In this document: piece after piece, positions 36,024 to 52,268 of the stretch | How positions within the stretch are numbered: position 1 is the first letter of the stretch | How the letters are laid out: every line of letters starts with the position of its first letter | DNA from: Sphingomonas sp. | Lineage (GTDB): Bacteria; Pseudomonadota; Alphaproteobacteria; Sphingomonadales; Sphingomonadaceae | Reading direction: 5' to 3' | NCBI RefSeq assembly: GCF_035998645.1 | Contig: NZ_DASYHL010000005.1 | Coordinates: 807,487 to 871,486 of the forward strand | Length of the DNA: 64,000 nt | Translations under genes and position numbers: made by a program | Notes under the pieces: generated by a model | The model's database searches: none | Told to the model about the DNA's origin: nothing | The model's input: only the letters and a program-made list of their open reading frames with translations

Positions 36024-37826
36024 TCAGGCAGCGAGCCGGGGTTCGTCCTCGGGCACGATCGCGCCTGCTGGGGCGGTGGGATCGGGGTCCTCGGGGGCAT
36101 CCGCCGTCGCCGCTGCCGATGTCGCCGCCGAGGCAGCAGGAGCAGCGGTGCGCACCGTGCCGACCCCGCCGCGCGCGGTATAGGCGGCGGGCGGGAACGC
36201 CATCCAGCGCGGCACCCAGCGCTCGATCCTGGCGCGCCCCCCGGTCCCCTCAAGGCAGTCGCGGATGATTGCCTTGAGCGCCTTGCCCTTCTCGCCTGCA
36301 TTGGCGGTCACGACGGCCTCCCCTGCGACCTCGGCGAGGATCGCGAGCAGCACCTCGCGGTCGCGGATCAGGTCAAAGAACGCGGCATCGGCCTGCCACC
36401 AGTCGGCCATATCGACGCCCAGCTGCAGCCCGGCGGCATCGACCGCTGCGCTGCCGCTCGCCAGCGCCTCGCCCATCACCACCGCGACCACCTCCATCAC
36501 GCACGGGTCGGGAAGCTCGATCAGCCGGTAGAACAGCCCGGCCAGTCCGAACGCGTCACCATGGCCGCCGGTAACCGTTGCCGCCTCGGGGTCGAAGCCG
36601 AGCAGGCCGAGCACCGCGCGGCGCTTGGCGTCGAACACGGCTTCGCCGCGACAGGTCTCGACCGACTCGGCGACCGCATCGCTGCGCACGCTTTGCGGCT
36701 CGGGGGTGACGCGGAACAGGTGCGATCCGACAATCGCGTGGGCGACCATCAGCCGCAGCGCGATGCCCGGCTGATCGACCAGCACCGCGCGCACCGCGGC
36801 ATGGCGATGCAGGTCGAGATAGGTCTGCATGATCGACGTCACCTCGGGCCGTGCGGGCTTGGTCGCCTCGGGCGCGTCGCCCTTGGCGGCGCGGCGCGCC
36901 TCGGCGCGGCTGACATAGCCTTCGTGAAAGATCACCTCGCCATTGGCGCGGACATCGACATAGACGCGCCCGCCCCGGCGCTTGCCCGCCTTTTCAACTT
37001 CCCAGACGTGGAACTGCTCGGACGGCGGCACGATCACGACATCGGCCCAGCCTTCCTCGAGATAGTCGGCGCGGCGCGCATCGATCGCGGCATTCTGCGC
37101 GATCCAGAACGCATCGGGGTCGGCGACATAGGCGTCCTCGCCGAACAGGTCGGCGATGATCGCGACCCCGCTCTCCGCGATCGGGAACAGCGCATTTGCC
37201 GCCTTGATCGCCGCGCCGCCGAACAGCCACGCCTTGAGCTGATAGCCCGATGGGGCGTAGGCGTCCGGATCGTCATATAGCGCCAGCCATGATTTTTGCT
37301 GCGCCTTGCTCGCCATGGTCAAATGGCGGACGGTCGCGGGATCGAGCCTGTCGGCGCGGTAGAGGTCGCGGATGCGCGGCAGCAGGTTGCCGAGCGCGAG
37401 GATGCGCCGCACGGTCAGGTCGGGAAGCCCGAAGGTCGCGCCGATATCCTCCGGCGTCTGGCCCTGCTTGACCAGCCGCACGAACGTCTCCCAGCGGCTG
37501 ACTTCATTGGGGTCGAGCCGCGCGATATTCTCGATCAGCGAGGCCTCGATCGCGGCGGCATCATCGTCATGGTCGAGGATCGCGCAGGGCAGCGGTTCGG
37601 CATGCCCGGTTTCTTCCGCGACGATCTGCGCCGCGCGAAAGCGCCGCGCGCCCGCGACGATCTCGAACGCGCCAGCCTCGCAATTGGGGCGGACCAGCAC
37701 CGGCACGATCACCCCGCGCTTGCGCACGGTGGGCAGGATGTCGGACACATCGGGCGGCTTCTTGCCATAACGCATATTGGTCTTGCTGACCGAGAGGCGG
37801 TCGAGCGGGATATGGTCGAGTTTCAT
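36024..37826 (-). CDS. ParB/RepB/Spo0J-family protein (long mobile-element type)
   Basis: EIVAGARRFRAA, ASLIENIARL, followed by a long helical C-terminus. Confidence 0.9.
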   Translation of the reverse strand: MKLDHIPLDRLSVSKTNMRYGKKPPDVSDILPTVRKRGVIVPVLVRPNCEAGAFEIVAGARRFRAAQIVAEETGHAEPLPCAILDHDDDAAAIEASLIENIARLDPNEVSRWETFVRLVKQGQTPEDIGATFGLPDLTVRRILALGNLLPRIRDLYRADRLDPATVRHLTMASKAQQKSWLALYDDPDAYAPSGYQLKAWLFGGAAIKAANALFPIAESGVAIIADLFGEDAYVADPDAFWIAQNAAIDARRADYLEEGWADVVIVPPSEQFHVWEVEKAGKRRGGRVYVDVRANGEVIFHEGYVSRAEARRAAKGDAPEATKPARPEVTSIMQTYLDLHRHAAVRAVLVDQPGIALRLMVAHAIVGSHLFRVTPEPQSVRSDAVAESVETCRGEAVFDAKRRAVLGLLGFDPEAATVTGGHGDAFGLAGLFYRLIELPDPCVMEVVAVVMGEALASGSAAVDAAGLQLGVDMADWWQADAAFFDLIRDREVLLAILAEVAGEAVVTANAGEKGKALKAIIRDCLEGTGGRARIERWVPRWMAFPPAAYTARGGVGTVRTAAPAASAATSAAATADAPEDPDPTAPAGAIVPEDEPRLAA

Positions 37827-37937
37827 GGGTCTGCTCCTTCTTGGGACCGGTGCGCGCCACGGCGACGCCCCGGTCGGATGGCGGCGGACGGCCGCCCGCG
37901 TTCGGAGGCGGGTCGAAGCGGTGTTCGACCCGCCCCC

Positions 37938-38375
37938 TCAACCGCCTCCCGGTCCGGAGGGCGGAAGCTCGGGGTCGCGCCGCGCGGCGGCGCTGCCGAC
38001 AAAGTCGAGCAGGCGCTGCGCGCCGATGATGCCGCCGGTCAGCTGCGCGGCGTCGAGCCAGACCGAGAGCGGAAAGCGCGTGGCAAAGCCGGGGTCGCGC
38101 GCGATGCGCAGGCCAAAGGGCAGGCGCACCGCGCCGATCTCGCTCAGCGAGAAACAGCCAAGCTCGGGATAGCCAAAGCCAAGATCGGCAAGGCCGAACA
38201 GCGTGTCGCCATCGCGATCGAGTTCGGTGGCAAGCCAGGTCGCCGCGCCGCACGGGTTGAACAATTTGACCAAAGGCACCGGATCGGGGGTCGGGGCGCC
38301 CGCTGCCATGGCGGCATGGCGGTTGCGGTCAGCGGCGCGCAGCGCCGCAATCAGCGCGGGCGGGATCAGGCACAT
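37938..38375 (-). CDS. DUF2958 family protein
   Basis: VKLFNPCGAATWLATELD.DGDTLFGLADLGFGYPELG.FSLSEI. Confidence 0.9.
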   Translation of the reverse strand: MCLIPPALIAALRAADRNRHAAMAAGAPTPDPVPLVKLFNPCGAATWLATELDRDGDTLFGLADLGFGYPELGCFSLSEIGAVRLPFGLRIARDPGFATRFPLSVWLDAAQLTGGIIGAQRLLDFVGSAAARRDPELPPSGPGGG

Positions 38376-39394
38376 GGTGCTTCCTCCCGCGCCTGCGCCT
38401 CGGCATGGCGCGCGAGCAGCCAGTCGGCGGCCTTGCTCGCCTGCGAGGCGGCGCGAAAGATCGCGCGGTTATCCTCCTTGAGCACCGCCAGCCACGCGCC
38501 GAGATAATCGGCGTGGCGCACGGTCGGCGCGATCCCGAGCGCAGCGCACAGGAATGCCGAGCCGAGTTCGGCGACCAGTTCCTCGCGCGCATAATCCTTC
38601 GACCCGAACGGATTGAGGATCTGGCGCGCAAGCCGTGAGGGGTGGCCCGTCGCGTGGGTCAGCTCGTGCAGTGCGGTGCGGTAGTAGTTGATCTGCTCGA
38701 AAAAGGCGGGCTGCGGCGGGACCTGCACGAAATCCTGCGCGGGCGCGTAATAAGCCTGCGCCCCGCCGATCCGGAACGGCACCCCCGAAGCGGCGATCAC
38801 CTGTTCGGCGACCGGCACGATCTCGCGTTCGGCAAGCGGCGCGGGATCGCTTGCGAGTCCCGCGCGCAAGCCTTCGCACTGCGCGACGTTGAACACGGTA
38901 AAGCGCTTGAGGAACGGCACCGCTTTGGCCTCGCCGCCATCGCGCGCGGCGCGCTGCTTCTCGCCCTGCGGCACGAAGCGGTCGGCATAGACCACCCCGG
39001 TGCCGCGCTCGCCCTTGCGCACGCGCCCGCCCGCCTCAATCGCTTGCTTGAAGGTCACCCAGCTTTGCGAGGGCCAGCCCTGTTCGATCACCGCGCCCCA
39101 CAGGATCAGGACATTGATCCCCGAATAGGGCCGGGCGGTGAGCGCGTTGCGCGGCATCGCGACCCCGGTCGCGGCCCCTGACCCCCAAGGCTGCACCCAT
39201 GGCACGCGCCCGGCTTCAAGCTGCGCGATGATCGCGGCGGTCACCTCGGCATAAAGGTCACGGCGCGGCGGCGCTGTCCCGCGCGCGCGTGCGCTTGCCG
39301 CGTCGGCCCGGCTCGCTCGGGTGCGCTTGGTCGACGTCGACGATTGATCGGGGGTCCGGCGGATGGTCCGGACGGAACGTTTGGTAGCAGGCAT
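38366..39394 (-). CDS. ardC: ArdC-family ssDNA-binding antirestriction protein (DUF1738 + zincin)
   Basis: GRVPWVQPW, YSGINVLILW, VRKGERG, ALHELTHATGH (HExxH), YAREELVAELGSAFL. Confidence 0.92.
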   Translation of the reverse strand: MPATKRSVRTIRRTPDQSSTSTKRTRASRADAASARARGTAPPRRDLYAEVTAAIIAQLEAGRVPWVQPWGSGAATGVAMPRNALTARPYSGINVLILWGAVIEQGWPSQSWVTFKQAIEAGGRVRKGERGTGVVYADRFVPQGEKQRAARDGGEAKAVPFLKRFTVFNVAQCEGLRAGLASDPAPLAEREIVPVAEQVIAASGVPFRIGGAQAYYAPAQDFVQVPPQPAFFEQINYYRTALHELTHATGHPSRLARQILNPFGSKDYAREELVAELGSAFLCAALGIAPTVRHADYLGAWLAVLKEDNRAIFRAASQASKAADWLLARHAEAQAREEAPCA

Positions 39395-40404
39395 CAGCGT
39401 CACTCCTTCCCCGCCCCGCACAAGGCCTCCCCGGAAAAGCGGGGGTGGGCGGCACGAGCGACCGCAGAGGCGCGGCAACGAGCGGGGCCTGCACCCTGTC
39501 CGGGGTCCCCGGCGCGCAGCGACGGGGTGGCAGGGCCGCAACGCAGTGAAGGAGCCGCGTCAGCGGCTTGCCGGCCCCGCGGCCGCGCCTAGCAGGGCGC
39601 GCCGCCCATCCCCGCTTGAACGGGAGAGGCCACAAGCAACGCCGCCGCGCGCCAGCGTGGCGACCGCACGCACCCCGCCGGGCGGCAAGCCCGGCGGCAA
39701 CAGAAAACCGGCACCCCGCACCGCGTCGGCCGGAACAGCGGCAGCGCACCGGGCTTCGCAGCCTGGACGGGGCATGGCGTCCGGGCGCGAAACCGGGCGC
39801 GCCGCCCGGCCGCAAGGCGGAGTGCCTGCGGGGCCGCGATCGGGCGCCGCACCCTGTCCGGCGGCTGCGGCCACCCCACCGCGCCAGCGTGTGGGCGGCC
39901 GCAGCCGTCCGGCAGTGTGCGTCAAGAGCCCCGCTCCACGTTCGGCCAGCAGCGCTGGCCCCGCCAGCCGATCGTCACCGCATGGCCGAGACCCGCCCCG
40001 AGGCTCGGTGGGGACGGGACCGGAGCCATAGAGCGGCGATCGCGCGGACAGTCCCGCGCGAGGCGGCAGGGTCCCGACACGACCGATCGCCCCCGCCCAT
40101 CAATCGATGGCAATCTCGAACCGTTACCCGCAGTCTTCGAAGGTGGGACGAACCCCCTGCGCGCATGCGCGCATTTGGTCGAGCTTCTGGTGGAGCGTCT
40201 TCGATTCGCGCACGCCTTGGGCAACCGCCAACGATCCGCGATGTTGTCCGGGGTCAGTTCGCCGACTGGCTGCAGGTTCCGAACCGGGCCGGCGATTTTT
40301 GGGCCGTGAGTGGACTGGCAGGTATCGGGCGCGACGCAACGGATACCCGCCTTGCGGGCGCAGGCGTCGTCATCGCTCTCGGCTGTTTAACAAGGGCGCG
40401 AACG

Positions 40405-42294: not shown

Positions 42295-42675
42295 ATGGAT
42301 ATGACCGCTTCCACGACGCATAACCCCGCCCGATGCCAGGAGGTGGCGCGCCATCTGGGATGGATCGGGGATCGATGGACGTTGCCGGTCGTCGTCGTGC
42401 TTGCGTCGGGTACGCTGCGCTTCAATGAACTGCGCAGGGCTGTCGCGGGGATATCACAACAGATGCTCACCCGCACGCTGCGCCGCCTCGAACGCGATGG
42501 CGTAGTGACCCGGACAGTGCGTCCCACGGTTCCGCCGATGGTCGAATATGCCCTCACCCCGCTGGGGCATTCGCTGGCTGCGCTCGGCCAGGACTTGGGG
42601 CGCTGGGTGGTGGATCAAGAAGCGGCGATCCATGCCAGCCAAGCCGCGTTCGACGCGCGGGTAGCTTCGGAATAA
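42295..42675 (+). CDS. HxlR-family winged-helix regulator, divergent from azoR
   Basis: IGDRWT, LRFNELRR, ISQQMLTRTLRRLERDG, PPMVEYALTPLG. Confidence 0.92.
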   Translation: MDMTASTTHNPARCQEVARHLGWIGDRWTLPVVVVLASGTLRFNELRRAVAGISQQMLTRTLRRLERDGVVTRTVRPTVPPMVEYALTPLGHSLAALGQDLGRWVVDQEAAIHASQAAFDARVASE

Positions 42676-43250
42676 CGGTCTGTGCGATGAACGTGCCGGG
42701 GCGGCGCGACAATTTCCGGGGCTCATCGGGCACTGGGCGCCTGATTGGCTGATATGGCGCTTTGCTAATTGTCAGCTGATGGCGAAACCGGCCCGGCCGT
42801 TTGTGGCCGCTTGCCGCATATCCGCTTTTGGACAGACACCCGCCGAAGCAGACGGTCGAGGACATGTCACTCATTCTCGGTCGAGAGCGTGTGCCGTGGT
42901 TATGGCTCGCAGTATAAGCACGGTTATGGGGGCACGATTAGCGGCTCCGGACACGTTGAGGGGCGAGCTGTGCAAGACGCACCCAAATCGCGAGCACCAC
43001 ACCCACGTGCATCGATCTCAGCGCCGGGCTCGCGCTCAATTATGACGACATTCCAACCGCCACAGGTGGACCGTGCTTTGCGACTCAGCGCACGGTTGAA
43101 TGCCGCTTCAGCGGATCGATTAACCCGGACAGGATGTGCAACTACCGCGTAAAATTGGGCCTGCGCACCGCTCAGTGACCTGAGGCCATGACCCGCCACC
43201 TCGAACGTGCTCCAATCCAATGACTATCTCGACAAGTTGGAGGCCGCTCC

Positions 43251-44174
43251 CTAGCCCGTCAGGAAAATCTGGTAACGCCAAGAGGCGTAGGCCAGTATTT
43301 CGTTGTGGCTTTCCGAAAATAGCGCGAGCCGTTCTGCTGACACGGGGACATAAGGTTTTGGCTCGCCCCCGGAGGCCTTTGCGTCCCGCTGACCGCACCA
43401 TGGCGGTGCCGATTCGGGATCGAGCCCGAAGTGCGCCAGTATTTCGGCGTAGCGCGCGCTAAGTTGTTCGTAGCCCACTGAAATCATATTTTCTCGGGAG
43501 AGCGACGCAAAAGAATCAAGCGCCGCGCAATAGCGGTGAGTCGCTGCAATCAGCACCGGATCCGACTCGGTCGGAGTAATTATCGGCAATGAGATCAACT
43601 CCTTCAACCTGCCCGCCTGAAGATACGGCGGTGGCTTTCGGGAGAGGGATTCCAGCACAGCGCTTGGCTCTCGATGCAGGAAGATGAACCGCGCTGCAGG
43701 CATTCGATCGAGTAGATTGCGGTGGTGAAGGTGCATTTGGCTTCCGAACTTGACCACCAGGGGCGCTCCGCGTTCCTGCGCCCAGCCGCGCCAGGCGTTC
43801 AGCATCGCAAGACAGGCGCGCATCGCCACATCGGCGCTAATGCTGCCCCACATGCGATGACGAAGGATGCGGAAAAATGGTGGCTCGCTCAATACCATAG
43901 CCTGCCCACTCGCTCTGATATTGCTCGCAAGCAATGTCGAGCCGCACCGGGACACATGAAATATGGCGCTAAAGTTAGCGAAGCCATCGCTCACTTCAGG
44001 TTGGACAGAGAGCCACTCGTCGAACCCTATCATGCCAACATGTCCGGTCCTCTCCGCGACGCTCGCGCTGAAAAACGGCTGAGTCATATCGAGCAGATCG
44101 GGATCGATCAGGCGAACAACATTGTGGTGACCATAGCGCTTAAACAGATATGGCAGACGCAAATTGCTGCTCAC
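43251..44174 (-). CDS. Sulfotransferase-fold protein (RiPP tailoring candidate)
   Basis: GTGA overlap with the upstream stop; 5'-PSB-like HVSRCGSTLL, LSEPP, 3'-PB-like IFLHREPSAVLESL. Confidence 0.75.
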   Translation of the reverse strand: MSSNLRLPYLFKRYGHHNVVRLIDPDLLDMTQPFFSASVAERTGHVGMIGFDEWLSVQPEVSDGFANFSAIFHVSRCGSTLLASNIRASGQAMVLSEPPFFRILRHRMWGSISADVAMRACLAMLNAWRGWAQERGAPLVVKFGSQMHLHHRNLLDRMPAARFIFLHREPSAVLESLSRKPPPYLQAGRLKELISLPIITPTESDPVLIAATHRYCAALDSFASLSRENMISVGYEQLSARYAEILAHFGLDPESAPPWCGQRDAKASGGEPKPYVPVSAERLALFSESHNEILAYASWRYQIFLTG

Positions 44175-45076
44175 GGCGTGGCCCAGTGTGACGTGTCGGC
44201 AAGTTTTCGAACATGGCTGCTGACTGCGAAGCGACCGCCCGCGAAGTGATGTTCGGCGAGATGGGTTGGCCCGACCGCATGATAGAACCAGCTGGGAAAC
44301 ACAACTAGCCGGTTCGGGATCGCCGCTACTTTGGTAAACCAGCTGGGCGAGATTTCCTGCCTCCCGAGATCTGTGTCCAGGACCGACAATTCGCCTCCAG
44401 TAAACCGTACCGGGACCTGCGCGAAATAATAGAGCCAAGTAATAGCTCGCCCCGCGCTTGCAACAGGGCCGTGGTTGTCGGCATGAGGCTTGAAGAAGCC
44501 ACCTTCGATATGATTTGTTAGCTTAATCTCGACCCGGTCCACCTTGAACTTCGGCAGACCGAGTGCACGTTGAAATCTCTCGAGATTAGCGTCGAGGAAA
44601 TCGAGAAAATATTGGCGCTTATAAGTGAATTGCGGGTTTACGAGCGTACGCCGCTTTGCCGGATCATAAACCGCGGTTTCCGAGAATGTTCGCGCATCAA
44701 AAAACTGCGGCTCAAGATCGCAAGCGTGTCGATGCAGCGCGTTCATCTCGTCCACGGGCAGAAAATCGTCGATCACTAGAATCGGCGAAATGACGTGGTT
44801 GCCCGGCGACCGGAGGCCCGGCGGGATGACGGCCTCTGGATCGAAAGCCTCTAGTACGTCCTCCGCCCCCACCGCGTTCAGATGGTCGACAAAGGCTGCC
44901 CGCGCTGACCTTAGATCCCCACATCGCCTCAGAAGATTCGCCCGCATGAGATGGGGTTGCGCACCGGCCCTGCCCAAGGCGATGCGCGCGTCCAGCTGCT
45001 CCAGCAATGCGTGCGTGTCACTACGATTGCTCAGTCGCGTCAGCTTCTCATAATATTCCTGCGTCTGGTTCCGCAT
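44171..45076 (-). CDS. 2OG-Fe(II) oxygenase (prolyl-4-hydroxylase-like) with short N-terminal helical/TPR-like extension
   Basis: KPHADN (HxD), ITWLYYF, FTGGEL, NRLVVFPSWFYHAV, RFAVS. Confidence 0.85.
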   Translation of the reverse strand: MRNQTQEYYEKLTRLSNRSDTHALLEQLDARIALGRAGAQPHLMRANLLRRCGDLRSARAAFVDHLNAVGAEDVLEAFDPEAVIPPGLRSPGNHVISPILVIDDFLPVDEMNALHRHACDLEPQFFDARTFSETAVYDPAKRRTLVNPQFTYKRQYFLDFLDANLERFQRALGLPKFKVDRVEIKLTNHIEGGFFKPHADNHGPVASAGRAITWLYYFAQVPVRFTGGELSVLDTDLGRQEISPSWFTKVAAIPNRLVVFPSWFYHAVGPTHLAEHHFAGGRFAVSSHVRKLADTSHWATP

Positions 45077-45084
45077 CTGTGCTG

Positions 45085-45354
45085 TTAATCCGCTCGTTTC
45101 ACGAGTTTTGCAGATTGGAGCCCCGCGAAGAAATTTTTTAGATCCGCCTCACATTGTAACGAAGTTAGCGAGTATTTCTCTTGGATTATTGCGGCGATCT
45201 GATCCAACGTCCGAGCGCCATCAACAAGATCCCAAATGACGCGACCCGTCTTGTTCAGTTCGATGAAATCTCCGGTGTCTATCGACATTAAAATTTTCAT
45301 CTCGCCCGACTCAGCCATCATCACATCATCGGCATATGCGAATACGTCCTGCAT
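45085..45354 (-). CDS. PqqD-family RiPP recognition element (lasso B1/E-like)
   Basis: FIELNKTGRVIWDLVDGARTLDQIAAIIQEKY...CEADLKNFFAGL. Confidence 0.88.
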   Translation of the reverse strand: MQDVFAYADDVMMAESGEMKILMSIDTGDFIELNKTGRVIWDLVDGARTLDQIAAIIQEKYSLTSLQCEADLKNFFAGLQSAKLVKRAD

Positions 45355-45355
45355 T

Positions 45356-46285
45356 TCAGCCAACTGAGCCCCTCCTCCTTCTTTCATCAGCGATTTTCGC
45401 AATGGCGTCCTCCGCTTTGGCCACTACCTCCGCCACCGTATCGTGCGCCGCCGGGCGGGCGATCCGCCAGACCGGTACAGCGTGCGCCAAAGCAGTCCAT
45501 TTTATCAACAATCCCGGCAGCTTGGCCCGCGCGATGAACCGCTTGCGAAAGCTGTGCGCCCATAGCAGGGCAATCGCTTCGCTTACTGGCACGCGTTCCA
45601 AGGAAACCTGAGTAACGCCACGTTGCTCGAGCACGATAACGCCCGAAAGGGGGTAAGGTGTGGCAGCAAAAAGGTGCTCGGTCGGCAGAACGCGTTTCCC
45701 TTTACTGCAGCGCATTTCGGTCTTCATCGTTTGGAAATCGGGTAGCCCGACCAAAACATCGTCAGCCAATTTGGTAACGCGTGGTCCGGCGGGGATCATG
45801 AACTCCGGCGCGTCGCCTACGACGGTGACATCATCTCCCAGCGTCTCGCCGCCGTTAGCCAGCAAGTGCGCGAGAGTCGTAGACTTGCCTGCGCCGCTCC
45901 GCCCACAAATGAGGTAGGCGTGCCCGGCACGGCACAGGCTGCCTCCGTGAAGAACGACGTTGCCGCGCTGATGGTGAATGGTCGCCAAACCGGTGCCCAG
46001 CAGATGGGCAAAAATAGGAGCGTCAGGGCCCGTTGGCGCTCGCTCAAAAACGATTCTCTTGCCCTCGGTGATCAGTAGCCGACCTATCCCTGGCACTTCG
46101 ACAAGGACTTGATCGCCTGAGACCTCGTAGAGGGGGCGAACCTTCTCAGCCTGCTCGAGGGATGCTGGAACATTGCCTTCATCCACTTGCACTTGGTTTT
46201 CGCAAAACGGACTGGACAGGGCTTCGAGCCCGGGGACCGGCAAACCCGCCTGAATCGTCAAGCCCAAAACGTCATAACAATGCAT
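45356..46285 (-). CDS. HPr-kinase-like peptide kinase (lasso K type)
   Basis: VLHGGSL, Walker A GRSGAGKST, LGDDV. Confidence 0.85.
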   Translation of the reverse strand: MHCYDVLGLTIQAGLPVPGLEALSSPFCENQVQVDEGNVPASLEQAEKVRPLYEVSGDQVLVEVPGIGRLLITEGKRIVFERAPTGPDAPIFAHLLGTGLATIHHQRGNVVLHGGSLCRAGHAYLICGRSGAGKSTTLAHLLANGGETLGDDVTVVGDAPEFMIPAGPRVTKLADDVLVGLPDFQTMKTEMRCSKGKRVLPTEHLFAATPYPLSGVIVLEQRGVTQVSLERVPVSEAIALLWAHSFRKRFIARAKLPGLLIKWTALAHAVPVWRIARPAAHDTVAEVVAKAEDAIAKIADERRRRGSVG

Positions 46286-46393
46286 ATGTCATTTGACCGA
46301 ACTCGACACGCCAGTGCCCGCAACAAGCGCCATATCACCCGACGCGAAAGCTGCATCCATGCATCGACGATAGTGCGTGTGGCGGCCTTCCTA

Positions 46394-46525
46394 TCAGGAA
46401 GGGCGTCCGGTGAAATCCTCGTCTAGGTCTATGATCCCGCCGCGGATATCGTCAGTTCCGGCTACGACTGTGAAAGTCGGCGTTTCCCAAGGCATCTTTT
46501 CGTCTGGCTCGGCAGGTGTCGTCAT
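46394..46525 (-). CDS. RiPP precursor peptide, 43 aa: MTTPAEPDEKMPWETPTFTVVAGTDDIRGGIIDLDEDFTGRPS
   Basis: GGGA RBS; lies between cyclase and kinase; WxxP leader motif; Gly-rich junction with Asp/Glu at positions 7-9 of the putative core; C-terminal Ser. Confidence 0.8.
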   Translation of the reverse strand: MTTPAEPDEKMPWETPTFTVVAGTDDIRGGIIDLDEDFTGRPS

Positions 46526-46642
46526 GCTCGATTCCCGGTTTGGATCCAAGTTATTCGCAAGCTTGGCAAAAGTTGTCAATTTCCTATCAAAACCAGACGG
46601 AGATGCAATCCTCGCAAGTCCTTAACTGTGGCTGCAGCTGGC

Positions 46643-48526
46643 TTACCCGGACAGGGCGGACGCCGACTTTTGAAATTCCTGCCATAAGCAAAACTGCGCG
46701 ATACGGTGGAATTGCCTGACGCTGAGCTGACCAACGTTGCCTGCGCTCGCTGCCGACTGGCGCAATTCGTCGACCACGAAATCCATATCGACAAAATCCG
46801 CGACCGCCGGATCAGAGCGATGCCTCTCGAATAAGGCCATGAAATCGCCTGCCTCTGCAAAAAAGCGGGAAATGGCGAACGGTACAGAAGCCCAGGACTT
46901 GTCGTCGCGCATGCGCACGCGATCGGGCAACCGCCCTGACATTGCGGAACGGATGAGCGTCCGGCGCTGCCCACCGGGATGAAGCTTCAGACGATCCGGA
47001 AGTCGCAAACAGAACTCCACGAGACGCAGGTCCAGCATCGGATAGGCATACTCGAATCCAAGGGATCCAGCGCCAACGGCGCTATCCTGTGCGCGATGGC
47101 CAATATGTGGGCTGCTGATGACACTGCGCTCGCGAGAGCCGATTGTGCCCCAATAGGGACGCAACGGAAAACGCATGCGGCGCCGGGCTAGTTCGTCATC
47201 GGACAGTAGAGTGGGGCGAGTCAGGCGCGGCGCCTTTCGGCAACGGAGTTCGAACGCCCGCCGGGCGCGCCAATGTAGCAAAGTGCGGCCGACCGGAGTG
47301 CGCCAAGCGAGCCGGGCCAATGGACTGGCGACCAGTCGCGCGAGATCCTCCCACCGCGCTTCGCGCGCGAGACTTTCCACCAGTCCCGCTCCCTGGGAGG
47401 TCGCGAGCTGATCGCCGCCAAATCCCGATAGCAAAACTCTGCAATCATTCTCGCGCATCGCCTCTGCAACGCCGAGCTGCAGAGAATTGAAATCCCGTCG
47501 ATGCAATCCGCCGTGGCGCGCAATCGTGTCTGCTAGGGCAGAAACTTGAGGGACCGCACTGTTCGCAAGCCAGTAATGTTTGCCTACGGGAATTGCATCT
47601 AGAACGGCTTCAATCTCTACCCGCTCGTCGCTCAGCGGTGCATCGCCGCAGGTGGGCTCATTTAAGACGTGCGAAAGAGTGAGCATTATATCGCCCCGCG
47701 CTGCGATCACTGGCGCAGCGGTCACGGCAATACTTGTGGAATCGAGACCGCCGCTCAGTTCGCTTGCAACAGAGCCTGAAGCAGGCACGCGGCAAGCTAC
47801 AGCCTGATCGAACAGATGCCGATATTCGGCAACCGCGTCAGCGAGTGAGATAGTGTCTAACGACCCTGTAGTGGGTGGCGCCCAGATCTTGTCACGATTC
47901 TCAAAATGCGCCAGCTTTGAAATCCGCGTCGCCGGCGGAACAGCGGCAATTCCCTTGTAGGGCGTCGATCCCGAATCGGGTTTCACAATTTCCAGGAAAT
48001 CGCTGATCCACAACCTGTCTTCCGCGCGATCAACAAAGGGCAGCGCAAGCAGCGCGTCCATGGAACTGGCGAATGCGTAATAGCCTCCTCCTTCGGAGGT
48101 AAACAGGGGTCGGGTGCCCATGGCATCTCGCACAAGCTCCAGACAAGCTCGACCGGAATCCGCAACCGCCAGAGTAAATTCACCGACTAATCGCGCGGCA
48201 AAATCTTTTCCCCAGCGCTTATATGCAGCTAGGATCAGCGATGCATCGTTTCCCCGAATGCTCAACGCGTGCTGCAATTCAGCTCGATTGTGGAGCCGGC
48301 CGTCGATGACGGCACAGCTGTGGCCATCGTTGGCTGTTGCAAAGCCGCCTGGCATGTCGCGGGGTGACTGCGTGCGTTCGTGCACGCCAATGTAGCACTT
48401 GGACGCCGCAAAACGCGCTTGGTGATCGGAGGGCCACCGCCCGGCCCGCGACTCCATAGCTTCTATCCATGCTGTCGGGACAGGGTTTTGACTAAAGGAA
48501 AAGATACCAAATATGATGCTCAACAT
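46643..48526 (-). CDS. Asparagine-synthetase-like lasso cyclase (C protein)
   Basis: No N-terminal catalytic Cys (MLSIIFG); RDAMGTRPL, PP-loop SELSGGLDSTS, LLSGFGGDQ, YPMLDLRLVEF, LPDRVRMRDDK. Confidence 0.85.
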   Translation of the reverse strand: MLSIIFGIFSFSQNPVPTAWIEAMESRAGRWPSDHQARFAASKCYIGVHERTQSPRDMPGGFATANDGHSCAVIDGRLHNRAELQHALSIRGNDASLILAAYKRWGKDFAARLVGEFTLAVADSGRACLELVRDAMGTRPLFTSEGGGYYAFASSMDALLALPFVDRAEDRLWISDFLEIVKPDSGSTPYKGIAAVPPATRISKLAHFENRDKIWAPPTTGSLDTISLADAVAEYRHLFDQAVACRVPASGSVASELSGGLDSTSIAVTAAPVIAARGDIMLTLSHVLNEPTCGDAPLSDERVEIEAVLDAIPVGKHYWLANSAVPQVSALADTIARHGGLHRRDFNSLQLGVAEAMRENDCRVLLSGFGGDQLATSQGAGLVESLAREARWEDLARLVASPLARLAWRTPVGRTLLHWRARRAFELRCRKAPRLTRPTLLSDDELARRRMRFPLRPYWGTIGSRERSVISSPHIGHRAQDSAVGAGSLGFEYAYPMLDLRLVEFCLRLPDRLKLHPGGQRRTLIRSAMSGRLPDRVRMRDDKSWASVPFAISRFFAEAGDFMALFERHRSDPAVADFVDMDFVVDELRQSAASAGNVGQLSVRQFHRIAQFCLWQEFQKSASALSG

Positions 48527-49061
48527 CCACCTGCAAGCGCTTGATTATGCGTCCTCGTCTAATCCTCAAGACCCCGTAGTCAAATCGCGCTCCGAAGGCC
48601 GAACTTTCGTTGCTTGCGTCGTAAACGCCCGGAGCACCCCCTCTTGTCTGTCGGATCATGCTCTGTGCCGCAGTCGGATCGTAGGAAAGAACGACCGCTT
48701 CCGGGAACACCCATAGGGGCGTTCGACGATTGCTCATGGGGTGCATTTCCGACCGGCCGGTTATGCCAATAGCGGCCTGGCTGCTGATGGGCCGTTAGCC
48801 GACTGGCGGCTGTTGGCATGACGAACTACGGAAGCAGCCGTCGCGTCACTTGCGCGGACAGATTGTGTATCCTCTGGAAGAGGCTATCGGATTTCTGCGT
48901 TTTAATCCGCTAATTGCCAGAGATTATCTCTGGCGATCGGTCGCTAGGAGTTGGGTGGCTTCGGGGCGGCGACCGAGGCTATGCGCTTGCTCAGTATACA
49001 TTGCTCGAACCGGTAGGCTGGTTTCGCTAATCTGGCATCGCGAGGTCACGAAGTAGCCGCC

Positions 49062-49412
49062 TTAAAGCCGAACCCCGAACCGTCCCAGCACGATCGTCAT
49101 CCCCGCGTAGAGCAGGACCGTCAGCACGCACCCTGCGGCGAGTGCAGGCCAGAAACCGATGCCGCGCTTGAGCAACAGCGGGATCAACACGAACATCGGC
49201 AAGCTGGGAAGCACATACCAGAAGGTCGCGAGTGCGTGATCGGCCATCAGCGTTACGTCGGGTTTGTCGCGCCAGAGCCAGATCATGCCGAGGACCGAGA
49301 CCAGCGGCAGCGATGCGACCAGCGCGCCGAAGCCGGGAGAGCGGCGGGCGATTTCCGAGACCAGCGCGATGAGCACCCCGGAAATCGCCGCCTTGATCGC
49401 AAGGTAGAGCAT
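49062..49412 (-). CDS. DUF3147 family membrane protein
   Basis: KAAISG...ALVASLPLVS...TFWYVLPSLP. Confidence 0.8.
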   Translation of the reverse strand: MLYLAIKAAISGVLIALVSEIARRSPGFGALVASLPLVSVLGMIWLWRDKPDVTLMADHALATFWYVLPSLPMFVLIPLLLKRGIGFWPALAAGCVLTVLLYAGMTIVLGRFGVRL

Positions 49413-49473
49413 CGGAAGTCCTAAACCACACTGTGCGCATGCGCTGCCATCTTCAGCACTGCCCTTATTTCCT

Positions 49474-50502
49474 TCAGAACCAGGCGCGGACCCCCAGGAC
49501 GAGACTGGTCGAGTGCGTATCCTCTCCGCCCGCACGGGCGAACGACGCGGTTCGTCCGAACTTCCGCTCGTGCACGATGCCCACATAGGGCGCGAACTCG
49601 CGGGCGATTTCGTAGCGGAGCCGGACGCCGGCTTCGCCACTCGACAAGCCGGACCCGATACCGAGCGCAGGAATGTCCTGCGCCGAAAGGTCGAACTCGA
49701 TTTTCGGCTGGAGGATGAGGCGCTGGGTCAGACGCTGGTCATATTCCGCCGACGCACTGGCGCGTAGTTCGCCTTGCGTCGAAAGCGACAGATAGGCATC
49801 GACCTCGAACCAATAGGGGGCAAGTCCCTCGATACCGATCACCGCATGCGTCCGGTCAGGACCATGGCCGATCTCCTGGCGCAGGCCGCCCTGGAGATTG
49901 AAATAGGGGCCGATCGCACGCGAATAGAGTGCCTTCAGATCGACGCCCTCGATTGCTTCGCCGAAGGTGCCTTCGCCCTCAGCCTTCAGAGCGAGGCGGT
50001 TGATGTCGCCACCGAACCAGGCGTCCGTCTCGAAACGATAGCCTTCATGTCCTTTGCTAATGGTCAGTTCGGCCAGATCGATCGTCACCTTGCTGAACGT
50101 GCCGCCGCCGTGATGGCGGCGCAGGTCGTCGCGGGTCGGCTGCATCGCGTCCCGCCCCCAGACGCGGTCGGCATAGTTCGCCGCGACGGGGGCCGGTGCC
50201 GGGCTAGTGCCCGGCACCAGGTCGGTGCCGACCGCATCCTCTGCCGGTGCCGCGTCCTTGGGCGTGCAGTGACCCATTTTTGCGTGTTCGGGGGGACAAT
50301 CCGGGTCGCTGGCGGGTGGGCTTGCCGGAGCTTTGGCATCGGGCATCCGGCAATGCCCCATCGCCGCATGTTCGGGCGTGCAGGCTGACGCGGCCTGGGC
50401 ACTATCCTTGCGGGCGGCCATCGGCGGCATCGTCTGTCCGGCGGGGGCAAGACCCAGGACAGACACGAAGCCGGTCCCGGCGAGAAGCAAGCTGCCGATC
50501 AT
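49474..50502 (-). CDS. copB: Copper resistance protein B
   Basis: His/Met-rich N-terminus; WFGGDINRL, LYSRAIGPYF, GLAPYWFEV, RYEIAREFAPYVG, terminal WF. Confidence 0.92.
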   Translation of the reverse strand: MIGSLLLAGTGFVSVLGLAPAGQTMPPMAARKDSAQAASACTPEHAAMGHCRMPDAKAPASPPASDPDCPPEHAKMGHCTPKDAAPAEDAVGTDLVPGTSPAPAPVAANYADRVWGRDAMQPTRDDLRRHHGGGTFSKVTIDLAELTISKGHEGYRFETDAWFGGDINRLALKAEGEGTFGEAIEGVDLKALYSRAIGPYFNLQGGLRQEIGHGPDRTHAVIGIEGLAPYWFEVDAYLSLSTQGELRASASAEYDQRLTQRLILQPKIEFDLSAQDIPALGIGSGLSSGEAGVRLRYEIAREFAPYVGIVHERKFGRTASFARAGGEDTHSTSLVLGVRAWF

Positions 50503-52268
50503 GCCGCGTCCTCCTGCGGGCGCACCGTCACGACCTGCATCATCCCGGCATGCATGTGATAGAGCATGTGGCAGTGGAACGCCCAGTCGCCCACCGCATC
50601 GGCGGTAAAGTCGAACGCAGCGGTCCCGCCGGGTTGAACGTTGACGGTGTGCTTGCGCGGCGAATGGTCGCCATGCCCCGTCACCAGCTCGAAGAAATGT
50701 CCGTGCAGATGGATCGGGTGGGTCATCATCGTGTCGTTGACCAACGTGACGCGGACCCGCTCGCCTTCGGTGAACGGGATGGGTGCGCGCACTTCCGACA
50801 GCTTCTCGCCGTCGAACGCCCACATATAGCGTTCCATATTGCCGGTCAGGTGGATGCGCACTTCGCGCTCAGGTCCGCGAATGTCGGGGTTGCGATCGAG
50901 CGCGACCAGATCACGATAATTGAGAACACGATGGCCGACATCGTCCAGCCCCTGTCCGGGATCGCCCATCCGGTCGACCGGCATCGGTGAGATCGATTGG
51001 ACCGTCGGCGTCTTGGCAACGCCAGGGGCGACCGAAAAATCGCGCATCGAATGCTTCATCGCTGTGCCACCGCTGTGTTCCGCGCCGTCGCCGCTTGGCA
51101 TCGTGCAATGGCCCATCGCCGCATGCTCAGGCGTGCAGACGGCAGCGCCATGACCGCCCATGTCGCCCATCCCCATATCCTTCATCGTCGCCAGCGGTCG
51201 CTTGCGCAGGGGCGGCACGGCACCGCGCATGCCGGGCCGGGGTGCCAACGTCGCCACGCCCATGCCCGAGCGATCGACCGTCTCGGCGACCAAGGTGTAG
51301 GCGCGGTCCTCGCTTGGCTCGACGATCACGTCATAGGTTTCGGCGACCGCGATCTGAAACTCATCAACGGCCACTGGACGGACGTTCATTCCGTCCGCCT
51401 GCACGATGCTGAGCTTCAGCCCCGGAATGCGCAGGTTGAATGTCGTCATCGCCGACGCATTGACGATGCGCAGCCGCACGCGCTCGCCCGGTCGAAACAG
51501 TCCGGTCCAGTTCTCTTTCGGGCCATGGCCGTTGACGAGGTAGGTGTAGGTCGCGCCCGTGACGTCCGAGATGTCGGTCGGGTCCATACGCATCTTGCCC
51601 CACGCCATCCGCTCGGCGGTCGACATCGGCTCGCCGTCCGTCGCCGTCAGCTTCTGATGGTTGAAGTAGCCGCCCATCTGCTTGAGCTTCTGGAAGATCC
51701 GGTGCGGATGCATGAAGCTGTAGTCGGACAGCACGATCACATGCTCGCGATCCGACACGATCGGATCGGCACCTTCGGGATCGATCACGATCGGGCCGTA
51801 ATGGCCCATCTGCTCCTGCAACCCCGAATGGCTGTGATACCAGTAGGTGCCCGCCTGAACGATCGGGAACTCGTAGGTAAAGGTGGTGCGTGGCTTGATC
51901 CCAGGAAAGCTGACCCCCGGCACCCCGTCCATGTGAAAGGGGAGGATCAGGCCGTGCCAATGAATCGAGCTGTCTTCGTCCAGAGCGTTTTCGACATGAA
52001 GCCGGACATTCTGCCCCTCGCGCAACCGGATCAGCGGCCCCGGCACGGTGCCGTTGATCCCGATCGCATGGCCGTGGCGGCCGTCGAGATGGATCATCTG
52101 GTGCGCAATGCGCAGCCGGATGTCTTCGCCGGACACCGTCTTGAGGTCAGCAACCAGACCGGGAGAATTGCTGCGCGCCCATGCCGGCATCCATTGCGAA
52201 AGCGCAAGGGCAGCGCCCCCCATCCCGACGCCGCCGAGCAGCTGTCGTCGATCCATTGTTCGAACCAT
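50499..52268 (-). CDS. copA: Multicopper oxidase CopA (Tat-exported)
   Basis: RRQLL Tat motif; HWHG, WYHSH, HPIHLHG, HCHMLYHMHAGM. Confidence 0.95.
   Translation of the reverse strand: MVRTMDRRQLLGGVGMGGAALALSQWMPAWARSNSPGLVADLKTVSGEDIRLRIAHQMIHLDGRHGHAIGINGTVPGPLIRLREGQNVRLHVENALDEDSSIHWHGLILPFHMDGVPGVSFPGIKPRTTFTYEFPIVQAGTYWYHSHSGLQEQMGHYGPIVIDPEGADPIVSDREHVIVLSDYSFMHPHRIFQKLKQMGGYFNHQKLTATDGEPMSTAERMAWGKMRMDPTDISDVTGATYTYLVNGHGPKENWTGLFRPGERVRLRIVNASAMTTFNLRIPGLKLSIVQADGMNVRPVAVDEFQIAVAETYDVIVEPSEDRAYTLVAETVDRSGMGVATLAPRPGMRGAVPPLRKRPLATMKDMGMGDMGGHGAAVCTPEHAAMGHCTMPSGDGAEHSGGTAMKHSMRDFSVAPGVAKTPTVQSISPMPVDRMGDPGQGLDDVGHRVLNYRDLVALDRNPDIRGPEREVRIHLTGNMERYMWAFDGEKLSEVRAPIPFTEGERVRVTLVNDTMMTHPIHLHGHFFELVTGHGDHSPRKHTVNVQPGGTAAFDFTADAVGDWAFHCHMLYHMHAGMMQVVTVRPQEDAA

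Follow-up and report, generated by a model that had tools for sequence, protein, structure and literature searches.

A Sphingomonas kinase-type lasso-like gene cluster with a coupled oxygenase and sulfotransferase: a candidate route to a sulfated lasso peptide

Introduction

Lasso peptides are prized as very stable scaffolds, and the tailoring reactions known for them are few. One described family is that of the kinase-type lasso clusters (paeninodin with PadeK, ThcoK, SyanK of Sphingobium yanoikuyae, pseudomycoidin and Bsf of Bradymonas), which combine a cyclase devoid of the N-terminal cysteine, a split PqqD-type B1 protein, a serine-terminated precursor and an HprK-like kinase with an H/G/GKS/DD motif. 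Here we describe a six-gene cluster with these features, its C protein being cyclase-like, in Sphingomonas sp. (assembly GCF_035998645.1). It lies in a stretch of 64,000 nucleotides (nt) of contig NZ_DASYHL010000005.1, positions 807,487 to 871,486, which we call the window and to whose first letter the coordinates below refer unless a locus number (L006, L007 and so on) or a genomic prefix (C1 to C5) is given.

In the kinase-type systems the C-terminal serine is the proven target of PadeK, ThcoK, SyanK and PsmK, the linear precursor being phosphorylated; the Sphingobium enzyme SyanK attaches as many as four phosphates. Kinase-type lasso clusters of Firmicutes and Proteobacteria, C-terminal (poly)phosphorylation, leaders with Ile at position -2 and 2-oxoglutarate (2OG)-dependent hydroxylation of lasso precursors are already published. 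Sulfation is rare across ribosomally synthesised, post-translationally modified peptides (RiPPs): a 2024 paper names RaxX, some methanobactins, conopeptides and two new lanthipeptides. A putative sulfotransferase gene beside Firmicutes lasso clusters was mentioned in 2016 and left uncharacterised, a published search for the co-occurrence of RiPP and sulfotransferase genes returned hits for LanM only, and in a comparative-genomics table for Pontixanthobacter the families of B2, nucleotidyltransferase, sulfotransferase, 'aspartyl beta-hydroxylase', PqqD and Asn synthase appear next to one another, uncommented. We found no characterised sulfated lasso peptide in the literature searched, in agreement with the original prediction for this locus.

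We consider it very probable that the Sphingomonas cluster is a functional lasso-like RiPP module of the kinase type. What sets it apart is an oxygenase and a sulfotransferase, translationally coupled to each other, whose predicted joint action would open a way, amenable to direct testing, to the first sulfated lasso peptide, one that would be triply decorated and polyanionic.

Results

A compact cluster of six genes

The cluster consists of six co-oriented, closely spaced open reading frames (ORFs) on the minus strand, at 43251-48526, in the order C-A-K-B1-Ox-ST (Table 1). C and A are separated by 117 nt, A and K by 108 nt and B1 and Ox by 8 nt; K and B1 overlap, and Ox and ST share 4 nt. The GC content is 0.53-0.63 within the cluster, compared with 0.62-0.79 in the flanks. 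The tight packing of six co-oriented genes and their lower GC content relative to the cop and azoR neighbours, both proposed in the original prediction, were thus recovered, with all six frames on the minus strand.

Table 1. Genes of the cluster, related clusters of the same genome and the C-terminal parts of orthologous precursors
Feature	Position	Strand	Description
C	46643..48526	-	lasso-cyclase-like Asn-synthase homologue, 627 aa
A	46394..46525	-	precursor, 43 aa, MTTPAEPDEKMPWETPTFTVVAGTDDIRGGIIDLDEDFTGRPS
K	45356..46285	-	HPr-kinase-like peptide kinase, 309 aa
B1	45085..45387	-	PqqD-family RiPP recognition element (RRE), leader-binding chaperone; 100 aa from ATG, ORF reaches 45402 from TTG
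Ox	44171..45076	-	2OG/Fe(II) oxygenase, 301 aa
ST	43251..44174	-	sulfotransferase of the 3'-phosphoadenosine-5'-phosphosulfate (PAPS) type, 307 aa, GTG start
Mobile block carrying the six genes	42805..48807	n/a	blastn, lower GC
Further clusters	C1:217-222k, 869-872k; C2:294-305k, 335-337k, 774-777k, 912-916k, 937-941k	n/a	outside window
Further clusters	C3:24-35k, 625-632k; C4:878-881k; C5:6-10k	n/a	outside window
Tail, window and L011			...DDIR, then GGIIDLDEDFTGRPS
Tail, L012			...EDIR, then GGVIDVDEDFTGSPS
Tail, L010			...QDIH, then GGIIDDDEDFTGNPS
Tail, L013			...ADIA, then GGAIDDDEDFTGNPPPS
Tail, L017			...KDIR, then SGAFFDDEDFTGVPS
Tail, L018			...EDIC, then SGTSDLDEDFTGTPS
Tail, L014			...SDVA, then GKIGVDLDEDFTGLPIPS
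Tail, L021			...ADIS, then SFAVDIDEDFTGDPLNS
Tail, L008			...SDVR, then SQIGPTVDEDFDGFPS
Tails, L009 (two precursors)			...AQVA, then SSVGPDVDEDWSGTPS; ...ADVA, then AVLGSSTDEDFTGVS

The precursor and the register of its core

The precursor divides into a leader of residues 1-28 (nt 46442-46525), with the motif W-x-x-P-x-F and ending in Ile(-2)-Arg(-1), and the predicted core GGIIDLDEDFTGRPS (nt 46394-46441, stop codon included), in which D7, E8 and D9 are present. The original prediction had staked the cluster on conservation of this 43-residue ORF next to homologous cyclases. We recovered 12 orthologous precursors (from loci among L008-L014 and L016-L021) and 12 further paralogues in the host genome, all terminated by serine; the C-terminal Ser43, already pointed out in the prediction, is invariant over the 12 orthologues and the 13 precursors of the genome. 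The small ORF keeps its position across the orthologous loci, except in L009 and L014, where it lies between Ox and ST. The leader motif W-x-x-P-x-hydrophobic is found in all orthologous precursors, and the cores follow the pattern (G/S/A)-x5-6-DED(F/W)-x-G-x-P-S after a leader with Ile or Val at -2. A precursor search in a protein set of 5.8 billion sequences gave only 2 matches, as small ORFs are seldom called.

Where does the core begin? When the cut is placed after (D/Q)-(I/V)-x, residue 1 is Gly, Ser or Ala and an Asp or Glu stands at position 7-9 in 12 of the 12 orthologues. Two other registers were considered and rejected. With Thr at -2 (core DIRGG...), position 1 would be Asp, Gln or Ala, and L008 and L009 would have no acidic residue at 7-9. 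With the canonical Y(-17)xxP(-14)xL(-12) spacing, the cut is shifted by one residue, which gives Gln or Val N-termini, and this spacing is variable among the in-genome paralogues; it is less consistent. For BsfA, the precursor of a kinase-type lasso cluster, Ile(-2) has been shown by experiment, and Ile/Val(-2) precursors of Sphingomonadales have been listed in silico (Duan et al. 2023, PMC10368454); the window leader shares with BsfA both the aromatic-x-x-P-x-hydrophobic motif and Ile(-2). Since the Ile/Val(-2) register fits all the orthologues and has the BsfA precedent, the core GGIIDLDEDFTGRPS is well supported, and it agrees with the core and the Gly1 to Asp7/Glu8/Asp9 ring of the original prediction.

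Within the cores the DED triad, Phe/Trp10, Gly12 and the terminal Ser are conserved, and Pro is found in 11 of the 12 precursors. Position 11 is Thr, Ser or Asp, and position 13 is variable (R/S/N/T/F/V/L/D). Of the two plugs suggested earlier, Phe10 lies at a conserved Phe/Trp position, and the variable Arg13 is unlikely to be a conserved plug. There is no Tyr in the lasso cores of the ST-type orthologues, and the C-terminal Ser is the only hydroxyl residue in all 12. Among the precursors of the host genome, Pro content does not discriminate those linked to an Ox gene from those free of one.

Cyclase, kinase and RRE protein

C matches Asn_synthase and GATase_7 in Pfam, and its best NCBIfam match is the lasso cyclase family NF033535 (238 bits, cut-off 525), ahead of the true Asn synthase family TIGR01536 (137 bits). 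The N-terminus, MLSIIFG, is devoid of the Cys2 nucleophile, and the SGGLDS PP-loop is present. It is one of 13 such Cys-less paralogues in the genome, which has 2 true Asn synthases with an MCG start. In the cyclase tree the true Asn synthases form their own clade (support 100/100), and window C groups, at 99/99 support, with the cyclases from other ST-type clusters, so that the grouping with asparagine synthetases contemplated in the original prediction was not observed.

K gives weak HprK and HprK_rel_A matches, under the Pfam and NCBIfam cut-offs. It carries the motif LH-x14-GRSGAGKS-x15-DD (LHGGSLCRAGHAYLICGRSGAGKSTTLAHLLANGGETLGDD), with a spacing equal to that of H148/G163/G166/G168/K169/S170/D186/D187 in BsfK, residues that were shown to be essential and are conserved in PadeK-type kinases (PMC10368454). 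K is predicted to phosphorylate, possibly to polyphosphorylate, Ser43. B1 is a PqqD protein (PF05402, 58.7 bits, cut-off 23.4) whose best NCBIfam match is NF033536 lasso_PqqD, under its curated cut-off; it is called as 100 residues in L011 too, and a PqqD/RRE gene is found in every orthologous cluster.

These data also bear on a reading in which the substrate of the enzymes would be no peptide but, for instance, a surface polysaccharide, the small ORF being spurious. Sugar-nucleotide and glycosyltransferase genes flank some of the orthologous loci (L008, L014), and C scores under the lasso-cyclase cut-off. However, over the 12 loci and the 13 in-genome clusters the small ORF keeps its sequence, its length and its place, each orthologous cluster has its PqqD/RRE protein, and C, which lacks the glutaminase Cys, stands apart from the true Asn synthases. 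This reading, which we hold to be extremely improbable, is largely refuted by the conservation of the precursor.

The oxygenase-sulfotransferase pair

Ox matches PF13640 (2OG-FeII_Oxy_3) with 41.6 bits against a cut-off of 27, and H198-x-D200, H266 and R282 are invariant among its homologues. Its AlphaFold2 model (pLDDT 88.5) comprises an N-terminal helical, TPR-like domain and a PHD/P4H-like double-stranded beta-helix. The best 47 fold matches in the Protein Data Bank (PDB) are all protein prolyl-4-hydroxylases, among them Pseudomonas PPHD with EF-Tu, PHD2 and Dictyostelium PhyA (DdPhyA), with TM-scores (TMt) of 0.6-0.72 for these three.

The ORF listed for ST has 395 residues and overlaps Ox by 268 nt; its true start is a GTG at 44174, which shares GTGA with the stop codon of Ox and gives 307 residues, the same length as in the homologues. 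Its Pfam matches (Stf0, Sulfotransfer_3) reach about 17 bits, under the gathering cut-offs. The invariant HVSRCGSTLL resembles a 5'-phosphosulfate-binding motif (5'-PSB) and R168-x7-S176 a 3'-phosphate-binding motif (3'-PB). The first 19 PDB fold matches of the ST model (pLDDT 90.6) are all sulfotransferases at probability 1.00, led by the CurM/OLS sulfotransferases and TPST1/2; sequence searches of the PDB with K, Ox and ST gave weak matches only. Kinase, oxygenase and sulfotransferase all retain their catalytic motifs, and PAPS should be available, because the genome encodes an APS kinase.

The two genes appear to be closely bound together. Their overlap is 4 nt in the window, L008, L011 and L013, and 1 nt in L010. 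In a metagenome-assembled genome (MAG) of Burkholderiales the two are fused into one ST-Ox protein of 604 residues (L024 9950-11764) with no lasso genes nearby, and in Acidovorax and Telluria (L046 3903-5658, L081, L085 640-2392) distant homologues of the pair are neighbours, again outside any lasso context. At the three of these loci for which ORFs were listed (L024, L046 and L085), ST/Ox stands directly upstream of a giant DUF4347-like adhesin with Ig repeats. We note that the N-domain of this adhesin carries ...FADD(F/Y)(T/N)xP..., which bears a faint likeness to DEDFTGxP of the lasso core.

Which residue, then, would be sulfated? The only hydroxyl residue present in all 12 cores is the C-terminal Ser, the presumed target of the kinase, and for this reason we suggest that ST uses a hydroxyl made by Ox; that it sulfates the hydroxyl group installed by its partner is the simplest reading of the gene content. 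The overlap of the two genes and their fusion in a distant homologue likewise argue for a relay of hydroxylation, then sulfation. Our first guess for the hydroxylated residue is Pro14, favoured by the fold of the Ox model and by the near-universal Pro, and our second guess is an Asp, by analogy with CanE of the canucin pathway.

The tailoring could follow another logic, Ox beta-hydroxylating an Asp of the DED triad as CanE does, and ST independently sulfating the existing Thr, the C-terminal Ser (in competition with K) or the folded lasso. Indeed, Asp is the only residue type besides Gly and Ser common to all the Ox/ST-linked cores, including the Pro-less one of Pseudoalteromonas, there is a precedent for beta-hydroxylating an Asp in a lasso precursor, a lanthipeptide sulfotransferase is known that modifies the cyclised peptide independently of the leader, and a Thr or Ser follows F/W in 11 of 12 cores. 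Nevertheless, the fold of Ox is closest to prolyl hydroxylases and not to other 2OG classes, position 11 of the L008 core is Asp and not Thr, and the translational coupling and fusion of Ox and ST speak for joint, ordered action. We consider such independent tailoring improbable and retain the ordered relay.

Conservation, selection and mobility

The original prediction had proposed a synteny search, and the gene order proved to be conserved in many genomes. The same C-A-K-B1-Ox-ST order occurs in about 10 other Sphingomonadales genomes or contigs, namely in Alteriqipengyuania lutimaris (L008), Aurantiacibacter zhengii (L009), Porphyrobacter (L017), Erythrobacter and Altererythrobacter MAGs, the metagenome contigs L010, L013 and L014, and the near-identical contigs L011 (98%) and L012 (~84-85%), as well as in the gammaproteobacterium Pseudoalteromonas phenolica (L015). 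The recurrence of this order, together with the homologous small ORF, in so many genomes puts the arrangement far beyond chance. An ST search of the 5.8 billion sequences returned about 31 close protein clusters, whose named members are from Erythrobacteraceae. Among species-representative genomes, the 8 closest ST loci (L016-L023) all have C, K, B1 and Ox, compared with none of the 72 more distant sulfotransferase loci having C, K or B1. The ST subfamily is rare: within the host order, an ST orthologue was found in 2 of 401 sampled genomes.

The six genes are under purifying selection: relative to the ~85%-identical L012, dN/dS is 0.17 for C, 0.54 for A, 0.40 for K, 0.19 for B1, 0.14 for Ox and 0.23 for ST, and all frames are intact. 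Two flanking ORFs, 48492-48746 (84 residues) and 42924-43220 (98 residues), were rejected as genes, since they show a dN/dS of about 0.7 and stops and indels or no conservation, and are treated as non-coding.

By blastn, the block matches L011 over 42805-48744 at 97.8% and L016 over 42805-48807 at 95.7%, both in flanks that differ from those of the window; L012 (85%) also matches the CopB-side flank, up to 50580. The block is a horizontally mobile six-gene module, as the near-identical copies in different flanks demonstrate and in line with its lower GC content. Contig CALRJR020000066.1, which carries L016, is labelled 'MAG: Prosthecochloris vibrioformis'; its genome measures 3.8 Mb and has the same pattern of two B2 genes as the window genome. 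For a green sulfur bacterium this label, or the binning, looks wrong.

Short and long forms of the cluster

In the long form of the cluster, a protein of about 1100 residues with ArsP_1, FG-GAP-VCBS and UnbV_ASPIC matches directly follows ST (L008 10972-14265, L009 10879-14205, L010 10967-14251, L013, L014). In L008 the genes after it encode B2, then a PAP2/VCPO-like protein, then an ABC transporter and lastly an NTP_transf_5 nucleotidyltransferase; the other long clusters have only some of these. A FG-GAP protein also borders the Bradymonas bsf cluster, where it was dismissed as unrelated by Duan et al. (PMC10368454); kinase-type lasso clusters may have in this protein a conserved partner that has gone unrecognised. 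In the cyclase tree the short form, to which the window cluster belongs, is nested among long forms, so that it is the derived one. B2 is encoded in cis in L008, L009, L015 and L017 and elsewhere in the genome for others, often more than 10 kb away; even the long forms often have none within 10 kb, and of the 8 genomes that carry an ST-type cluster 7 possess a B2.

A genome-wide expansion of kinase-type clusters

The host genome holds about 12 further clusters with a Cys-less Asn-synthase homologue and an HprK-like kinase, usually accompanied by a PqqD gene (Table 1). Its 13 small precursors are each Ser-terminated and carry the W-x-x-P leader motif, mostly with Thr(-2). Twelve congeners have 0-2 strong kinase matches each, with the kinase within 2 kb of B2. 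The cluster count is a striking lineage-specific expansion.

A six-frame PF13471 search finds only two genes for the transglutaminase-like leader peptidase B2 in this genome, both outside the window. The first (C2:890711-891370), about 20 kb past the window end, is the fused B gene of a canonical lasso cluster (C2:890711-897800, L006 9711-16797) with a GntR regulator, the fused B, C, an S9 prolyl-oligopeptidase-type protein resembling a lasso isopeptidase and a TonB-dependent receptor. The second (C3:30702-31217) is a stand-alone gene for a B2 of 171 residues in a second kinase-type cluster (L007), which further includes a 2OG oxygenase and the one homologue of the window ST that the genome has elsewhere. 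Tandem small genes were noticed beside two kinase/ST-type lasso clusters, this one (L007 11142-12416) and that of the unrelated Pseudoalteromonas phenolica (L015 19734-20981). The latter are annotated as phage-tail-collar (PF07484); in L007 two ORFs of about 200 residues are collar-like, judging from the sequence alone.

Genomic setting

On one side the cluster is flanked by genes for a PRK09272-type membrane protein, CopB and CopA, and on the other by an AzoR-like Flavodoxin_2 gene and HxlR. Farther out, about 4 kb away, lie an ArdC antirestriction/zincin protein and a ParB-N protein of 600 residues (window 36024-39541), which points to a conjugative-element context. After this region, about 500 nt (39500-40000) reach 79% GC and have no convincing ORF. 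In Aurantiacibacter zhengii (L009) the orthologous cluster adjoins TrbC/VirB3/VirB4/TrbL genes.

Copper-resistance genes (CopA, CopB and the PRK09272/BV97_02767 membrane protein; window 49062-52268, L012 79-1519) directly adjoin the module in 2 of 4 short-form contexts, an adjacency not kept in L011 or L016. Sulfation was reported in the 2024 paper to increase the copper affinity of methanobactin, and a metal-binding role is conceivable for a polyanionic product.

A scan of 42600-49200 found promoter and terminator sites no more numerous than in shuffled sequence, and the fold of the A-K intergenic RNA was no more stable than that of shuffles (z = +0.97). Neither end of the block shows a convincing terminal repeat, direct or inverted, and Rfam and tRNA scans of the window gave no matches.

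Discussion

The pathway that we propose would run as follows. B1 would bind the W-x-x-P-x-F leader motif and present the precursor to the tailoring enzymes. K would phosphorylate, and might polyphosphorylate, the invariant C-terminal Ser, the PHD-like Ox would hydroxylate a residue in the tail DED(F/W)-x-G-x-P-S (Pro14 in the first instance, Asp in the second), and the translationally coupled, PAPS-dependent ST would O-sulfate the new hydroxyl. A B2 cysteine protease from another locus of the genome, with the stand-alone B2 of C3 as the candidate, would then remove the leader by a cut behind Ile(-2)-Arg(-1), and C would join Gly1 to Asp7, Glu8 or Asp9. The product would be a strongly anionic lasso of about 15 residues, phosphorylated and hydroxy/sulfo-decorated. 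Each of these steps, and all the chemistry of the product, is inferred from sequence. Taken as a whole, with trans-acting B2, lasso formation, phosphorylation and the hydroxylation-sulfation relay, this pathway seems to us to have slightly better than an even chance of being correct.

Several observations weigh against it. The first concerns the leader peptidase: the six-frame search of the whole genome finds no B2 (PF13471) in the window, and tblastn with an orthologous B2 reveals none hidden near the cluster. With no B2 in cis, lasso formation depends on one encoded in trans. Both resident B2 genes, moreover, belong to clusters with Thr(-2), not Ile(-2), precursors; cross-processing by a B2 in trans is plausible, and for an Ile(-2) leader hypothetical. 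Nor is there an ABC exporter or a nucleotidyltransferase in or near the window cluster, and the host genome has no homologue of the long-cluster B2, FG-GAP/ASPIC, PAP2/VCPO or NTP_transf_5 proteins, the ABC transporter giving a general match only. As for the enzymes, C, B1, K and ST score under the curated family cut-offs, B1 passing Pfam PF05402. As for the site of hydroxylation, Pro is lacking in one Aurantiacibacter precursor (DEDFTGVS) and in the Ox+ST core of Pseudoalteromonas, GGTFLSVEGGDSKGGS. Finally, no mature product of any proteobacterial kinase-type cluster is described in the literature searched, and the Bsf cluster was silent in five hosts (PMC10368454). The original prediction is thus supported in part: this is a lasso-type RiPP cluster of the kinase class with a conserved precursor, and the prediction left unmentioned that B2 and the exporter are absent in cis.

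Could the modified peptide not be a threaded lasso at all? It might be linear, with its leader retained or trimmed by a housekeeping protease, C being inactive or making an unthreaded branched-cyclic lactam. The missing cis B2, the lack of any homologue of the orthologous clusters' B2 and the disproportion between about 13 C/K/B1 clusters and only two B2 genes all lend themselves to this view. So does the maintenance by selection of the short, B2-less block in at least three lineages, which implies that B2 is not needed adjacent to it. On the other hand, the lasso signature (Gly/Ser/Ala at position 1, an acidic residue at 7-9) is present in all the orthologous cores, purifying selection on the Cys-less cyclase is strong (dN/dS 0.17), and B2 is carried by the orthologous long clusters and found as a stand-alone gene in 7 of 8 host genomes. 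Furthermore, the title of a paper on pseudomycoidin reports lasso synthesis with neither leader nor leader peptidase. A non-lasso product is in our opinion unlikely, without being far-fetched, and we keep to a lasso matured with the help of a trans-encoded B2.

The same missing genes could also mean that the window copy is a silent or decaying remnant of a longer cluster which makes nothing now that B2, the exporter, the FG-GAP protein and the nucleotidyltransferase are gone. The short form is indeed derived and nested within the long ones, its partner genes are absent from the genome, and under laboratory conditions the related Bsf cluster remains silent. Against this, the six frames are intact with dN/dS values of 0.14-0.54, compared with about 0.7 and stops in the neighbouring pseudo-ORFs, and the six-gene block is retained at 96-98% identity across differing contexts. 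We regard decay as highly improbable, and a functional module as the better account of these data.

A broader idea, which we put forward only tentatively and think rather doubtful, is that Ox and ST form a portable hydroxylate-then-sulfate cassette, used for a sulfated lasso here and for adhesin decoration in Burkholderiales. If so, it would yield an O-sulfated hydroxy-amino acid, such as sulfo-hydroxyproline at Pro14, adjoining a (poly)phosphoserine, a RiPP modification without precedent, and the fused ST-Ox of Burkholderiales would have giant DUF4347-type adhesins as its target, with decoration at a comparable acidic-aromatic-Thr-Pro motif. As a corollary, B2-less six-gene modules would spread horizontally and rely on a single resident B2 for many clusters, 13 such precursors being encoded in this genome. 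The candidate relay of C-H hydroxylation and O-sulfation could be put to new use in peptide engineering, and the cluster may serve as a natural case in which to ask how one leader peptidase, encoded elsewhere, might act for many clusters.

How does the cluster compare with the known systems? With respect to the kinase-type lasso clusters, it adds the coupled PHD-like 2OG oxygenase and PAPS sulfotransferase and lacks B2, D and N genes in cis; its DED(F/W)xGxPS precursor sub-family was not found in the searchable text of the published alignment (Duan et al. 2023). With canucin A it shares an Fe/2OG hydroxylase in a lasso cluster. CanE acts on the linear precursor, at the beta-carbon of a C-terminal Asp, whereas the window core ends in Ser and its Ox has a fold nearest to the protein prolyl-4-hydroxylases. 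With the sulfated RiPPs, namely RaxX/RaxST (sulfotyrosine), the methanobactins (MbnS) and the class II lanthipeptides (SslST), it shares a PAPS-dependent sulfotransferase in a RiPP cluster, and the fold matches of the window ST include TPST1/2, with which peptide sulfotransferases have been compared. However, RaxST, MbnS and SslST sulfate a pre-existing Tyr or Thr, and the window ST belongs to a different subfamily and is paired with an oxygenase.

The activating sulfotransferases CurM and OLS are the best structural match of ST (Foldseek E 1e-6) and its best PDB sequence match, at TM-scores of about 0.4. They are polyketide synthase domains that act on acyl chains bound to the acyl carrier protein and use sulfate as a leaving group, and there is no thioesterase or decarboxylation partner in the window cluster. 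In curacin biosynthesis, the sulfotransferase of this type sulfates an enzymatically generated beta-hydroxyl.

In conclusion, the cluster is a good genome-mining target and not a categorically new system. What is new here is a kinase-type lasso pathway with a predicted, dedicated hydroxylase-sulfotransferase pair and a distinctive DED(F/W)xGxPS core.

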